This document shows positions 5,952-10,489 of a DNA stretch of 12,140 nt, one piece after another. Origin of the DNA: a virus. The first letter of the stretch is position 1. Each line of letters opens with the position of its first letter. The stretch lies in the UHGV virus genome UHGV-0102870; one strand, written 5' to 3'. The translations under genes were made by a program, and so were the position numbers. The notes under the pieces are model-generated. The model made no database searches. It was not told where the DNA came from and saw only the letters and a program-made list of their open reading frames with translations.

Positions 5952-6584
5952 TTAAGCCAGTTTCAGCATGCACGTCCCGCACGCTCTGGCGATGTTAAGT
6001 TTTGCCACCTCTGCAGGTTGATTTGCTGCGTCCACCAGCTCTTGCACGTCGGCACTCGCTCCGTATCGCCGAACCACGCCAACGAACTCTTCAACGTCGT
6101 GGCCGCGTAGGTATAGCTTTGGCAATCCGGAATCGCGGTAGAACTTCGGGGAGCCGAATTCATCGGTCTCCTGCGCTATGTGGTAAAGCTCATGCTCTAC
6201 CAGCGCGCAGAATTCCAGGTCAGAGCATTGCAGGCAGAAGTCACCGGCCAGCGTGATAATGAAGTCCGGTTTATGTCCGAACCACTCATGCATCTGCTGT
6301 TCCATCCGGGCTTTTTGCCATCCACCAGCACGCATCATTACCTCTTCGGCCTGACCGAGAACGGCTCGCCCTTTTTTGGTGAATGCGGTTGCCGCCCACA
6401 AGAACGCTATATCAGCATCAGCGAGGTGTGCGTGGTCAGGGTTATGCAGATGACCGGAATCGGCGATGATTTGCTCCTGCACCCATTGCCATACACCATC
6501 AGCAGGAGCTAACCGAATGTACGGAGCGAACTCTCCGACGAATGCGGATGATGGCAGCGGGCGGAGATCATCTTCATTCGCCAT
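5952..6584 (-). CDS. HExxH-motif protein, putative phage metallopeptidase-like, about 210 aa
   Basis: Start taken at the internal ATG (6584-6582, MANEDDLRPL...) with AGGAAG 6 nt upstream; the upstream ATG at 6611 abuts the terminator hairpin and lacks an SD. Contains HELYH (HExxH) in VEHELYHIAQETDEFG. Confidence 0.55.
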   Translation of the reverse strand: MANEDDLRPLPSSAFVGEFAPYIRLAPADGVWQWVQEQIIADSGHLHNPDHAHLADADIAFLWAATAFTKKGRAVLGQAEEVMMRAGGWQKARMEQQMHEWFGHKPDFIITLAGDFCLQCSDLEFCALVEHELYHIAQETDEFGSPKFYRDSGLPKLYLRGHDVEEFVGVVRRYGASADVQELVDAANQPAEVAKLNIARACGTCMLKLA

Positions 6585-6610
6585 GGTTATCTTCCTGAGG
6601 TTTGGCTCCA

Positions 6611-6638
6611 TTAAAAAAGCCCCGCATTAGCGAGGCTT
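6611..6638 (-). terminator. Rho-independent terminator downstream of the small AT-rich ORF
   Basis: On the minus strand: 9-bp stem with one mismatch (AAGCCTCGC / GCGGGGCTT), 4-nt loop, then a run of six U followed by AA and two more U; lies 20 nt past the stop of the 6659-6955 ORF. Confidence 0.55.
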
Positions 6639-6658
6639 AAGACACTGATGAACATTAG

Positions 6659-6955
6659 TTACTTCAACTTAGCGAGATAGCTGATAACCATATCCAGGCT
6701 TACACGATCCTGTCCATCTGAGTACCAAGTATTAGGGGCTGGCTGATTGGCTTTGTACAGGGCATCAATGTTTAGGTTGATGTCAGTCACTTTAAAATCT
6801 CGATCATCAGGGTCAAGCTTTGATGAAATGATCTGACAGGAGCCTTCAGGTACTTTTTTGTGGTAACCAAGCTCATGGTTTTTACAGTAAATCTCGTACT
6901 TGATGGTAGACCCATCGTCCGTTTTCAAAATGAAAGAGTGAATTAAGTGCTTCAT
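6659..6955 (-). CDS. Hypothetical small protein, about 98 aa, AT-rich moron-like gene
   Basis: ATG at 6955-6953 (MKHLIHSF...) with a G-rich SD-like stretch 6 nt upstream; visibly lower G+C and different codon usage than the flanking phage genes; flanked by a candidate promoter and a terminator. No recognisable family. Confidence 0.5.
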   Translation of the reverse strand: MKHLIHSFILKTDDGSTIKYEIYCKNHELGYHKKVPEGSCQIISSKLDPDDRDFKVTDINLNIDALYKANQPAPNTWYSDGQDRVSLDMVISYLAKLK

Positions 6956-6992
6956 GAAAACCCCCACTATTAGTGTGAGTTATCACTTTAGC

Positions 6993-7001
6993 ATTATCAC
7001 A
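6993..7001 (-). promoter_or_regulatory. Candidate extended -10 promoter (TGTGATAAT) for the 6659-6955 ORF
   Basis: Minus-strand TGnGATAAT about 40 nt upstream of the ORF start; no good -35. Sits within two direct TTATCAC repeats (plus 6980-6986 and 6994-7000), next to an imperfect palindrome at 7001-7019. Confidence 0.3.
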
Positions 7002-7037
7002 GGCACTCAGTGAATGCCTGCTGTAATGCCTGGCTAT

Positions 7038-7382
7038 TTATCTCAGGAAGAGGTTGGCTGCATACTCGCCGTCAACGAAGACATCACATTCCTTTGCGTC
7101 ACGGGAAAACTTACAGCGGGCCATAACTTTTTTACCCTTATAGTCGCCGTTGTATACGTTCGTGTAGCTTTGGGCGAAAGCGGCCGAAAGACTTTTATCC
7201 TGGTTAAGGAATGAATCATCAACAACCAGGACATCATTAACCCACAACTTCAGTATTCCGTTTGGCATATTGGCACTAATGAGCATCTGCTCTCCATTGG
7301 GAGAGCGATAAGGTTGCTGTGCAGAATAGTTAGTGCATCCTGCAAGCAGGAGCGCAGAAAGCAAAACGGTAATACGCTTCAT
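7038..7382 (-). CDS. Putative lipoprotein (moron-like), about 114 aa
   Basis: N-terminus MKRITVLLSALLLAGC: basic n-region, hydrophobic core, lipobox L-A-G-C. AGGTGA SD 10 nt before the ATG at 7382; an in-frame ATG at 7388 is too close to the SD. Confidence 0.7.
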   Translation of the reverse strand: MKRITVLLSALLLAGCTNYSAQQPYRSPNGEQMLISANMPNGILKLWVNDVLVVDDSFLNQDKSLSAAFAQSYTNVYNGDYKGKKVMARCKFSRDAKECDVFVDGEYAANLFLR

Positions 7383-7498
7383 GGACATTCATTCACCTAA
7401 GTTAAATTATTGATTGATATGGTTTTAATATCACTAAAAATTAAACTATCAGCGCCTGGTTGTACACATGAAAATTGTTGTTATTTGAAGCTTAGCAA

Positions 7499-7969
7499 TC
7501 ATCTAATGCACTGCTCACGCACATACGCTTGCAGGCCTGTCAGTTGGCTGGTGATGGTTTCGATTCGCTCTCTGAGGGTGAAATAATCCCGTTCAGCGGC
7601 GTCAGTAAGTCGGGGGCCGGTTGCATCATCCAGGCCGGTGGCGCTGGCCGTTCCGTTCGCGGGACAGGTTGCGTTGAGCTGCAACCGACGTTTGCCAGCA
7701 GCAACATCACGCTCAAGCTGATCGATAGTGGCTTTGGCATCAGCCAGTTCTCCGGTGTATTTGGCATCCAGTGCAGCGACATCACGCTGGCGGGTCTGCA
7801 TGTCTTTAATGGTGGCGGTCGCCAGGAGGAGTTTCTCAGTGGCCTTATCGCGCTGGTCTCTGTAAGTGATGGCGTTGTCGCGGTAGTGGTTCACGAAGAA
7901 AGCCAGTGCGCCGATTAACGCCAGCACCAGCAACTGCAGCCAGTAACGCTTAACCAGTGCGCTAATCAT
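7499..7969 (-). CDS. Rz: i-spanin Rz, 156 aa
   Basis: N-terminal TM segment then coiled coil; clear similarity to lambda Rz as I recall it ([62 protein letters not shown]); start overlaps the endolysin stop. Confidence 0.9.
7540..7740 (-). CDS. Rz1: o-spanin Rz1 lipoprotein, embedded in the +1 frame of Rz, about 66 aa
   Basis: ORF lies entirely inside Rz in another frame; [20 protein letters not shown] signal with lipobox Cys; proline-rich mature part [24 protein letters not shown] closely matches lambda Rz1 ([25 protein letters not shown]) from memory. Start could instead be the ATG at 7707. Confidence 0.8.
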
Positions 7970-8406
7970 GACAGGAACAGAGCTCGCTCTGCCTCCCGCC
8001 GACGTGTCAGCCCATTCAGCACCTTCCCACCAGCTTTATTCCAGCGCAGGAACTCATCGGCTGCACCAGCGTAATCTCCGGCGTTGAGTTTTCGCAGGAG
8101 AGTCGATGTCGACAATGACCGCGCACCGAGGTTATACGTGAACGACACCAGGGCATCGAATTGCCCCTGAGTCAGGCCAACTTTAACCAGTCGTGACACG
8201 TCACTTTCGTAACTGACCATTCCTGTCTTCAGCAGGCGTTCTGCCGTTTCCTGCTTAATTGTCATCCCGGCACGGATTGGTTTCCCGTCGACGGGCTGAG
8301 TCCAGCCATAACCGATCGTCCAAACGCCGACGCTGTCCTGATAGGCAGTGAGCTTGCAACCTTCGAACTCTTTGATCAGGGCAATGCCTTTATCACTGGT
8401 TTGCAT
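7966..8406 (-). CDS. Endolysin, phage lysozyme (T4 lysozyme / GH24 type, P22 gp19-like), 146 aa
   Basis: N-terminal catalytic region [28 protein letters not shown] and C-terminal [12 protein letters not shown] match the P22 gp19 lysozyme family as I recall it; no N-terminal SAR/TM segment; overlaps the holin stop. Confidence 0.92.
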
Positions 8407-8710
8407 TCTTCATCCCCGTCAGTCGTTCCCAGAAGTACGTCAGTGCCACGGAGCCCATCGCCCCGCTGATACCAGACGTAACCAGAATCATGTAAAGGCT
8501 CAGCCCACTTTCAACGCTGATCAGTCCACCAATGAGACCGGTAAAGCCGGACACTGCAATTTGTGCCAGCGCGTTGATCCAGCTCCAGGTGGCTTTGTTC
8601 TGCTTAACGTCAATAAGGTATCGGACCAAGCCGCCCCAGCATGACAGAGCAAGGACAATCAGCCATGACACTCCGGCAATGCTTTCTTTATCTTGCATAC
8701 GTTTAGCCAT
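8393..8710 (-). CDS. Holin (three predicted TM segments, class I-like), about 105 aa
   Basis: ATG at 8710-8708 with a strong SD (GGAGGT) just upstream; three hydrophobic segments and a short charged C-terminus; directly upstream of the endolysin. The annotated ORF extension to 8824 uses GTG inside the terminator hairpin and is rejected. Confidence 0.75.
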   Translation of the reverse strand: MAKRMQDKESIAGVSWLIVLALSCWGGLVRYLIDVKQNKATWSWINALAQIAVSGFTGLIGGLISVESGLSLYMILVTSGISGAMGSVALTYFWERLTGMKNANQ

Positions 8711-8768
8711 ATCACCTCCGAAAGAACGGGGTGCTGTTTGTAGTAAGGGATCAGGCCCTCGGGACGAT

Positions 8769-9161
8769 TTAACAAGAAGGCATGTCGATGATGATTCCCG
8801 TGAGCCTGAAAACAAAAAAGCCACCCTTAGGTGGCTTGTGAGTGTACGAAGTCCGGATTCCTTTCTTCGCTTTTAATAGAGCGTTATCTTCTTTCAGGCT
8901 ATCTACTTGGTCTCGCAACCTTTCAAGTTCTTTCTCGGCTCTGTCACGGTCACGCTGAAGACCTTTTATCACTTCGCCTTGGGACGCCTGTACTTCTTTG
9001 AGAATCTGGACGTTAGCTTCGGACTCATCGACAGTGTCGATAATCCTAACAGCAAAAAACGATACGATAGCCATAAGCAGACCAACCATCGTAGTAAGAA
9101 TCCAGACCTTCACACCGGAAGCAGAATTTTCAGAGGCTTCTATAAGAAATTCCTTATGCAT
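8769..9161 (-). CDS. Hypothetical membrane-anchored coiled-coil protein, about 130 aa; possibly a gene remnant
   Basis: ATG at 9161-9159 (MHKEFLIEAS...), weak SD; one N-terminal TM segment (WILTTMVGLLMAIVSFFAV) then heptad-like charged region (RDRDRAEKELERLRDQVDSLKEDNALLKAKKG). The last ~25 codons are encoded by the terminator hairpin and U-tract (KPPKGGFFVF), so the 3' end is doubtful. Confidence 0.4.
   Translation of the reverse strand: MHKEFLIEASENSASGVKVWILTTMVGLLMAIVSFFAVRIIDTVDESEANVQILKEVQASQGEVIKGLQRDRDRAEKELERLRDQVDSLKEDNALLKAKKGIRTSYTHKPPKGGFFVFRLTGIIIDMPSC
8809..8837 (-). terminator. Strong rho-independent terminator (tR'-like) about 100 nt upstream of the holin
   Basis: Minus-strand RNA: perfect 8-bp stem AAGCCACC / GGUGGCUU with 4-nt loop, followed by UUUUUUGUUUU. 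Confidence 0.7.
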
Positions 9162-9697
9162 AGTAAAAATACCCAACGCGCGGCCGCGACGTTAGAACCG
9201 AGGGTATTTTAACTACATAAGGTTATGAAGATCTTCGAAAAAAATGAGATGGTAATCTGTTTGGTTATTTAATGAGCGAAAACAGCCAAAATCCCCATGC
9301 AGGGATGATAAAAAACGTCATTGTGTAAACGACTGCGGGCTGTAATTTATTCAAATTAAATTTCCTTAGTAGGGCTCTATGTGTCCTACAACATCCAACC
9401 TACCGAAAGACATTGATTGATACAAGAGGAAAAACACTACTTTTTATTCAAATTAGGATCGGTTTTGTATCCGATGGCGCGGCATTATACGGAGATAACC
9501 CAAGTTATCAACATGAATTGCCCTCATTTGCACGCAAAATGTGCTGTTTCTTCAAAAGAATGAACAGTTTTGATGGTGAACAGTTATCAACGCTTACGTT
9601 TAAAAAACAAACCATTAACACGCACAATGATTCACAGTTCAAAAAGTTCACATTTATGACCGCGAGATGGTACACAAGTTCAAAGAATTCACTTACT

Positions 9698-9731
9698 AAA
9701 ACAAAAAGCCCAAGGCGTTAACCTCAGGCTT
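9698..9731 (-). terminator. Candidate intrinsic terminator shortly downstream of the putative late promoter
   Basis: Minus-strand RNA: GCCUGAGG / CCUUGGGC stem (8 bp including two G-U pairs), 6-nt loop, followed by UUUUUGUUUU; about 50-80 nt downstream of the predicted start site. Confidence 0.45.
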
Positions 9732-9787
9732 GAAAACTCATTTACTGCCAGTGCATACAACAATGGCACAATATCAGATTTACACGA

Positions 9788-9816
9788 AATATATGCTATT
9801 TAGTTCATTTCTGCAA
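9788..9816 (-). promoter_or_regulatory. Candidate sigma70 late promoter (pR'-like) immediately downstream of the Q-like gene
   Basis: Minus strand: TTGCAG (-35), 17-nt spacer, TATATT (-10); predicted start near 9781. The -35 lies 9 nt past the Q stop codon, mirroring the lambda Q/pR' arrangement. Confidence 0.4.
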
Positions 9817-10489
9817 TACCTTGCTGATAATTTGCTGCCTTTTGTTGTGAACGTGATCGCGAAACATGATGTAGTGACTGTGAGTCCAGCCTCTTATACA
9901 AACTGACCATTGCATCGTAATGTTCCACGTAATTCTGAGACCAGTTTGTTTTATTAACGCCCACCAGCGCAGCCAGATCGCCATACTGATACACATCCCT
10001 CCCAGCTAACTCGTTTTTCACATCCTGCGCCGCCAGCCATATCAACTGACGCAACCGCTCGATAGTCTTTTTCGCCACCCTCTTCCCAGCCAGTTGCTGG
10101 CTGAACTGTTGCCAACCCCACTGAGTGATTTCAACCTGATAGCACCAGCGCACATTCTCGCTGTAGGTCCAGAGCAACCATGCTCTCTGATGGTCTTCCA
10201 GAGACAGGACAGCGCGGCGCCATGATGCGGTGCCGAACTCTACCGGACTCACCAGCGCGATTGACGAGCCCTTGGCGCGTGACTGACTGCCGCTCATCGG
10301 CGGGCCGTCTGGGTTAACCATGCGCTTTTTCTGCGCGTCATAGACTTTCTTCCGCCCCCGGCTGCGCGCCGTCGCGGTGAATTGAGCGTTCTCGGCGAAA
10401 GCGACCAGCTGCCCTTTCGTCGCCCCGCTGAGGTCTGCGGTCGCCACAATGAGCTGCTGACGTACGTATTCCAGTTGCTGACTGTTCAT
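9800..10489 (-). CDS. Putative late-gene antitermination protein (Q-like), 229 aa
   Basis: ATG at 10489-10487 with AGGAAG SD; position is diagnostic (after nin/RusA genes, immediately before promoter, terminator and lysis cassette). Not the lambda Q zinc-finger type; assignment is positional plus vague family recollection. Confidence 0.5.
   Translation of the reverse strand: MNSQQLEYVRQQLIVATADLSGATKGQLVAFAENAQFTATARSRGRKKVYDAQKKRMVNPDGPPMSGSQSRAKGSSIALVSPVEFGTASWRRAVLSLEDHQRAWLLWTYSENVRWCYQVEITQWGWQQFSQQLAGKRVAKKTIERLRQLIWLAAQDVKNELAGRDVYQYGDLAALVGVNKTNWSQNYVEHYDAMVSLYKRLDSQSLHHVSRSRSQQKAANYQQGIAEMN

Follow-up and report, generated by a model that had tools for sequence, protein, structure and literature searches.

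A lipoprotein gene behind Rz of a lambdoid prophage probably lies in a mobile cassette that ends in a conserved 39-nt hairpin

Lipoproteins carried as prophage cargo, among them Bor, Cor, and Llp, alter the encounters of bacteria with phages and hosts. Bor/Iss (PF06291) is small cargo in the Rz–cos interval of lambda, where bor lies on the opposite strand. Cor (of phi80, N15, and HK022) and Llp (of T5) are single-gene outer-membrane exclusion lipoproteins of ~80–100 residues that mask receptors; Llp blocks the receptor of T5 itself, saving released virions. Other known elements bear on the stretches between genes, such as the RNase III intercistronic hairpins of T7. Juhala, Hendrix, and colleagues reportedly defined morons in 2000, for HK97 and HK022. 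Morons are also treated elsewhere (PMC3594210), and the literature contains the proposal that lambdoid phages exchange modules through short conserved sequences that flank them (PMC2327257). Lipoprotein morons are well known from the slot that separates the lysis genes from the packaging genes; the family described here is itself uncharacterised and without a curated model.

The window analysed here, a stretch of 12,140 nt, carries the genes of a lambdoid prophage from Q through lysis to packaging, all on the minus strand (Table 1). Behind the metallopeptidase-family gene come a gene for a DUF2280 protein, which occupies the small-terminase position, then the gene for the large terminase subunit, and the head genes. 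The Rz1 embedded in Rz is 60% identical to lambda Rz1 (E = 5e-18), and because it is embedded there, the spanin pair is complete without the downstream lipoprotein. The initial annotation had placed a lipoprotein with the lipobox LAGC right after these spanin genes, behind an AT-rich spacer of 110 nt, and had read it as a moron unrelated to Bor. These statements are borne out by the evidence below and in Table 1. A further proposal, that an inverted repeat in the spacer is a regulator binding site, fares poorly. The lipoprotein might be a lysogenic conversion factor, as the initial annotation also suggested.

Table 1 Features of the locus, in window coordinates
Feature	Position	Strand	Remarks
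Q	9800–10489	-	Start of the gene order through the lysis and packaging region
Consensus-like promoter	9511–9484	-	After Q
Terminator-like site	8837–8818	-	Upstream of the holin
Holin ORF	8393–8710	-	Followed by lysozyme
Lysozyme	7966–8406	-	
Rz, inner-membrane spanin	7499–7969	-	PF03245, E = 3e-45; phrog_13
Rz1, outer-membrane spanin	7540–7740	-	Embedded, +1 frame of Rz
AT-rich spacer, Rz stop codon to lipoprotein ORF	7389–7498		110 nt, 28% GC
Probable mobile unit of ~500 bp: ~100-nt leader, gene, and hairpin	6990–7485	-	Local BLAST against Enterobacter sp. 638
Candidate sigma-70-like promoter	7406–7434	-	Consensus scan, 9/12 matches
Inverted repeat TGATAT-N7-ATATCA	7415–7433		Present; chance level, not conserved
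Conserved leader AATAATTTAACTTAGG	7396–7411	-	Just 5' of the Shine-Dalgarno sequence
Signal peptide with lipobox L-A-G-C	7335–7382	-	Cys16; rule-based lipoprotein test
Lipoprotein gene	7038–7382	-	114 aa and stop
Conserved hairpin, 39 nt	6991–7029	-	8 nt after the stop codon; 3' end of the cassette
ORF of 98 aa, after the hairpin	6659–6955	-	Sister prophages carry other genes there
Strong intrinsic-terminator-like hairpin with T run	6617–6638	-	Closes the low-GC island
Phage metallopeptidase-family gene	5952–6611	-	

The translation of the minus-strand ORF 7038–7388 begins MSMKRITVLLSALLLAGC. In homologues and in RefSeq the start is the second ATG, at 7382; the in-frame ATG at 7388 would give a protein of 116 aa, and the distance from Rz to the gene is 110–116 nt. 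The signal sequence, MKRITVLLSALLLAG-C, ends in the lipobox LLAGC, the cysteine of which is invariant. Both the window protein and 27 of 27 family members tested satisfy a PROSITE-style lipoprotein rule, which looks in the first 35 residues for a charged or basic n-region, a hydrophobic core, and an [AGS]-C lipobox. The Pfam model LPAM_1 also matches the signal region, below threshold. At position +2, the family has T, A, or S and never D. In E. coli, lipoproteins with a residue other than Asp at +2 are sorted to the outer membrane by the Lol pathway. Since residue +2 of the window protein is Thr, the Lol pathway should deliver the precursor, with its signal of the signal peptidase II type, to the outer membrane.

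The mature part comprises 99 residues and is predicted to form a compact eight-strand beta sandwich; the AlphaFold model is all-beta, with eight strands and a pLDDT of 86. Only three cysteines are invariant in the wide alignment, namely the lipid-attachment cysteine, C90, and C99. In the model, C90 and C99 are positioned on adjacent strands, where they probably form a periplasmic disulfide. Foldseek finds nothing at E ≤ 0.001 in PDB or BFVD; the fold searches return generic matches only, with scores at the level of generic eight-strand beta proteins. A profile search of PDB by sequence gives nothing significant, and its match to T4 Spackle (E = 0.29) is discarded as noise.

The family is small. 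Among 5.8 billion proteins, a single-sequence search retrieves 22 clusters at 90% identity and a profile search retrieves 35; a search of 1.84 billion clusters at 50% identity yields 28 representatives. Members with a taxon name are from Escherichia coli, Siccibacter, Enterobacter sp. 638, Pectobacterium, Dickeya, Yersinia, Xenorhabdus, and Candidatus Symbiopectobacterium, and each carries the annotation of a hypothetical protein. No model in Pfam, NCBIfam, or PADLOC fits the lipoprotein or its 27 relatives, with matches at the level of the signal peptide at most; the sole PHROG match of the lipoprotein is likewise limited to the signal peptide. By tblastn, no relative is found at E ≤ 0.01 in 50,697 phage records, phi80 among them, and none is found in 72,556 plasmids. 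The gene is present in only one of 5,426 complete E. coli genomes. The family is rare, and the lipoprotein, encoded by a single gene of 345 bp, is cheap to test.

Members of the family occur in widely different settings. In E. coli prophages, the identical protein is encoded directly behind the same Rz, in carriers whose head modules are of the Mu-F/terminase_6 type in some and of the lambda GpA/gpW/S49 type in others; two types of holin occur among them. In Enterobacter sp. 638, the copy (82% identity) is found 2.3 kb beyond Rz and follows rha and another gene. A copy of 64% identity is positioned between the holin gene and a methylase gene that follows Q. The copies of Yersinia enterocolitica (59% identity) lie in two prophage backbones, in the lysis–terminase interval on the opposite strand, an orientation that they have in common with lambda bor. 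The window gene, in contrast, lies on the late-gene strand. Further copies are found in Pectobacterium after an hns-like gene, in a conjugative element with PilS/shufflon, TraD, ParB/RepB, and MobA; in Xenorhabdus on a chromosomal island, beside RtcB and toxin–antitoxin genes; and on a contig with a P7-type repressor gene. In prophages, the family thus occupies three positions in both orientations, and it has no constant partner gene. Within the close group, at least four of six lineages adjoin Rz.

Local BLAST against the Enterobacter sp. 638 prophage delimits a shared unit (Table 1) that is 79.7% identical over 502 aligned columns. The sequence flanking the unit is unrelated, and the ends of Rz align separately. 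The base composition also sets the region apart, with a GC content of 0.37–0.49 across 6600–7500 and of 0.53–0.61 on both sides. The 98-aa ORF lies within the same low-GC island as the lipoprotein gene, and a strong terminator-like site follows it directly; this ORF has no match in Pfam, PHROG, or PADLOC.

Several features of the locus are those of a moron, as the initial annotation had proposed. The contexts are scattered, the gene is present in some and absent from other related genomes, and the base composition deviates from that of the surroundings. As in the morons of HK97 and HK022, an extra gene lies between otherwise contiguous neighbours, with its own base composition and a candidate promoter, and recurs on scattered, unrelated elements. 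The resemblance is incomplete at the two ends of the transcription unit. The gene's own promoter is only predicted here, and no U-tract terminator stands directly after the gene; instead, a conserved hairpin without a U tract follows, and the next true terminator comes only after the second ORF. Taken with the varied contexts and the absence of a constant partner, which argue against a conserved structural or lysis-accessory protein, these features make it very probable that the lipoprotein is mobile cargo and part of neither the lysis machinery nor the virion.

A role as an accessory of the lysis system, for example one that regulates or partners with the spanins or the endolysin, would account for the position immediately beside Rz/Rz1 in E. 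coli and several further close lineages. However, the spanin pair is already complete, lambda and phi80 have Rz/Rz1 without the lipoprotein, and no relative is found in the phage records searched. In addition, the family occurs upstream of the lysis cassette and also without lysis genes nearby. We therefore regard such a role as very improbable. That the lipoprotein is itself an outer-membrane spanin of the Rz1 type is rejected, given the genuine Rz1 inside Rz and the family members without lysis genes nearby.

The lipoprotein resembles Bor/Iss in being small cargo in the lysis–packaging slot. There is no sequence relationship between the two: BLASTP against lambda Bor gives E = 0.4, and the Pfam model Lambda_Bor has no match at E ≤ 1, in agreement with the initial annotation. 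A functional analogy, in which the lipoprotein confers serum (complement) resistance or acts otherwise on an animal host, is improbable. Besides the missing homology, the fold scores remain at the generic eight-strand beta level, and the family is largely associated with plants and insects (Pectobacterium, Dickeya, Xenorhabdus, and Enterobacter sp. 638), for which complement is irrelevant.

The spacer between Rz and the lipoprotein gene contains the perfect repeat TGATAT-N7-ATATCA noted in the initial annotation. This 6+6 dyad lies over the -35 hexamer and the spacer of the candidate promoter, and its exact pattern is rare in the window; both points would suit an operator at which a dimeric regulator controls the lipoprotein gene. 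However, when the spacer is shuffled 5000 times with dinucleotides preserved, 54% of the shuffles hold one or more perfect 6-bp inverted repeats with a gap of 0–15, and the two such repeats observed in the spacer compare with a mean of 1.04 per shuffle. Pairing is not conserved either. Counted over the six pairs in eight homologous upstream regions, 60% of cells are paired, against 59% in shuffles, of which 239 of 500 do at least as well. In distant contexts ~30 nt upstream of the start are alignable, and the dyad is absent there. A search for a second copy of the pattern in the 12-kb window finds none. The repeat is thus neither beyond chance nor conserved, and an operator at this place is hardly credible. 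The left arm of the repeat is better explained as the putative -35 hexamer of a sigma-70-like promoter.

This candidate promoter consists of a -35 element GTGATA (7434–7429), a 17-nt spacer, and a -10 element AATAAT (7411–7406). The same arrangement is found in four of the five other close lineages and is absent in Enterobacter sp. 638. The relatives have ATGATT, TTGAGG, or TTGATG as the -35 element, a spacer of 17 or 18 nt, and AATAAT or AATCAT as the -10 element; two of their -35 hexamers, TTGATG and TTGAGG, are better than GTGATA of the window. Transcription from the predicted start site would give a very short leader. The scan finds eight promoter-like sites in the region, against 4.7 ± 1.9 expected, an enrichment that is not significant. 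A promoter inside the cassette has modest support from the conserved arrangement.

No terminator-like site is found in the spacer between Rz and the lipoprotein gene, so the gene must share the Q-antiterminated late transcript of the lysis genes. Such co-transcription with the Q-dependent late operon follows from the anatomy of the locus. The weak promoter of the cassette itself would likely add expression from the repressed prophage, because it is kept in most close relatives and because some relatives lie antisense to the late operon or outside phages.

The segment just upstream of the Shine-Dalgarno sequence is strongly conserved. The leader AATAATTTAACTTAGG is almost unchanged before lipoproteins that are only ~60% identical and have unrelated genomic surroundings (L008, L012, L014, and L017), and AATTTAACTTA together with a downstream G is invariant in five unrelated genomic contexts. 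It resembles the leader of T7 gene 10, aataattttgtttaactttaagaagga, which contains a translational enhancer. By analogy, the lipoprotein leader may act as a translational enhancer in the same manner.

The explanation that we favour, with some reservation, is that of a self-contained accessory cassette of ~500 bp that encodes a lipoprotein acting on the envelope. The cassette would have entered an E. coli lambdoid prophage in the interval that separates Rz from the packaging genes. The lipoprotein would be made late with the lysis genes and probably also in the lysogen, and would reach the outer membrane. The conserved leader and the stable 3' hairpin point to an mRNA that is efficiently translated and has a protected or processed end. 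The lipoprotein would act alone at the cell envelope and would benefit whichever mobile element carries the gene. Prophages, a conjugative element, and chromosomal islands all carry members of the family, in bacteria that are enteric, plant-pathogenic, or insect-associated, and the trait conferred at the cell surface is therefore probably a broadly useful one.

As to what the lipoprotein does there, our tentative guess is the exclusion of other phages or donors through masking or alteration of an outer-membrane component, as with Cor, Llp, and TraT. The guess draws on the precedent of Cor, Llp, TraT, and Bor, which are other envelope lipoproteins. Cor and Llp, as phage-borne single-gene lipoproteins that act alone, serve as the model for this mechanism. 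The resemblance is one of kind only, since the window protein finds no match among the phage records, phi80 included, and no match to a PHROG exclusion family.

A different use of the same activity would be the protection of progeny, in which synthesis of the lipoprotein is confined to the time of lysis-gene expression and the phage's own receptor is blocked on lysing cells and debris, in the manner of Llp, which would spare the released virions. The gene lies on the same strand as Rz, directly behind it and without a terminator between, and the prevalence of Rz-adjoining lineages in the close group points the same way. That the E. coli copies all adjoin the same Rz would also suit a function late in infection. 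On the other hand, late transcription cannot drive the relatives that lie antisense to the late operon, in the conjugative element, or on the chromosomal island. Moreover, the identical protein is linked to different virion modules, and sequence similarity is absent from the phage records. We give this alternative little weight.

It is also quite improbable that the lipoprotein is an orphan immunity protein against a periplasmic toxin that targets the envelope, such as a type VI effector, a bacteriocin, or a lysozyme. The points in favour are that it is a small, periplasm-exposed lipoprotein encoded by a single gene on mobile elements, and that the Pectobacterium copy lies ~3.4 kb from a PAAR/pyocin-S toxin gene.

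The cassette ends at its 3' side in a hairpin of the sequence GCATTA-CAG-CAGGCA-TTCACTGAG-TGCCTG-TGA-TAATGC, which is more unusual than the upstream inverted repeat. Among sister prophages, similarity stops exactly at the 3' edge of the hairpin, which thus marks a mosaic joint. The same 40 nt stand after the stop codons of rha in phi80, gene 053 in mEp390, and a DUF2560 gene in E. coli. Copies are located in L002 (1814–1853), L020 (4001–4041), L021 (3001–3040), and L026–L145. A degenerate pattern retrieves the hairpin from at least 120 IMG/VR contigs, where it usually follows a stop codon directly and stands at a mosaic joint. One contig has the order lipoprotein, hairpin, another gene, hairpin. 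Searches for the hairpin in the Rz–cos region of lambda, and for a second copy upstream of the lipoprotein gene in the window, find none. A search of the whole window against Rfam 15 (E ≤ 1) gives nothing at the hairpin and nothing that bears on the cassette. In the literature searched, nothing specific is found for the hairpin sequence, the protein accessions, or descriptions of such boundaries or palindromes in lambdoid phages.

The hairpin is directional. After orienting the copies by their asymmetric positions, we find among the matches listed that a same-strand ORF of at least 50 aa ends between -1 and +8 nt from the hairpin in 81 of 120 cases, against ~7 opposite-strand ORFs that end equally close. 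The genes themselves vary and several are accessory, the upstream ORFs falling into 37 clusters and the downstream ORFs into 44 among the matches listed. The neighbours include DUF2560, Acb2/Tad1-type, DUF2514 (presumably a spanin), HNH endonuclease, and DUF2513 proteins, a BamE-like lipoprotein, a homologue of DNA polymerase III theta, and rha.

Two of these neighbours can be described further. Among the matches listed, an Acb2/Tad1 hairpin domain protein (PF24729, E = 2e-18) is the second commonest type that ends at the hairpin, with a gene of this type upstream of the hairpin at nine loci (L027 and eight similar ones). Acb2 and Tad1 are anti-defence sponges for signalling nucleotides. A BamE-like small lipoprotein is found in the cassette slot just after the same hairpin (L020, 3555–3932; L142), which suggests that lipoproteins of the envelope recur as cargo at this site.

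Covariation points to a structured RNA. In 35 distinct variants of the hairpin, 87.6% of cells pair, compared with 80.1 ± 0.8% in shuffles, none of 500 of which is as high; 29 of the 35 variants were retrieved with a pattern that fixed 26 positions and left free there only pairs 7–11 with 29–33, and the remaining six come from lipoprotein loci found independently of the pattern. Double changes number 35 cells against 12.6 ± 2.8 in shuffles, and controls in which the pairing is slid collapse. At pair 9–31, GC is found 16 times, GU 11 times, and AU five times, a path of substitution from G-C through G-U to A-U that is typical of RNA helices. Folded as RNA, the region has an energy of -26.5 kcal/mol (z = -5.1), with a long stem and an internal loop between the cistrons.

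In this architecture the hairpin is comparable to the intercistronic hairpins of T7 that RNase III recognises, in that here too a long stem with an internal loop stands between cistrons. It is likewise comparable to the exchange sequences proposed for lambdoid phages, in that it lies exactly at joints between unrelated genes. We infer that the hairpin is an intercistronic signal for RNA processing or stabilisation and also a patch of homology at the joints of the cassettes. More speculatively, and with rather low confidence, the locus may exemplify an undescribed cassette system of enterobacterial lambdoid phages, in which accessory genes are each closed by the same directional 39-nt hairpin near the stop codon that serves both as RNA signal and, being the one sequence conserved at these joints, as patch for swapping, and in which the lipoprotein founds a new family for exclusion or protection at the envelope. 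Being widespread, placed at mosaic joints, and oriented with the upstream gene, the hairpin may matter more than the lipoprotein, and it could give a sequence handle on the exchange and expression of accessory genes in lambdoid phages.

Two minor observations concern the region between Q and lysozyme. The translation of the holin ORF shows two close in-frame starts with basic residues between them (MAKRM...); a dual start is known from lambda S, which gives holin and antiholin. Upstream of it, the segment of ~1 kb between Q and the holin (8742–9762) corresponds to 200 bp in the sister prophage L003. The segment holds the near-consensus promoter of Table 1 (TTGATA, 16-nt spacer, TATAAT) and an ORF (8769–9176) that encodes a hydrophobic N-terminal stretch and a heptad-like charged region; the 3' end of this ORF crosses the terminator-like site upstream of the holin. 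The late promoter of lambdoid phages is active before Q acts. The segment may be a second cargo insertion, at a place where the pre-Q late promoter could express the ORF in lysogens.
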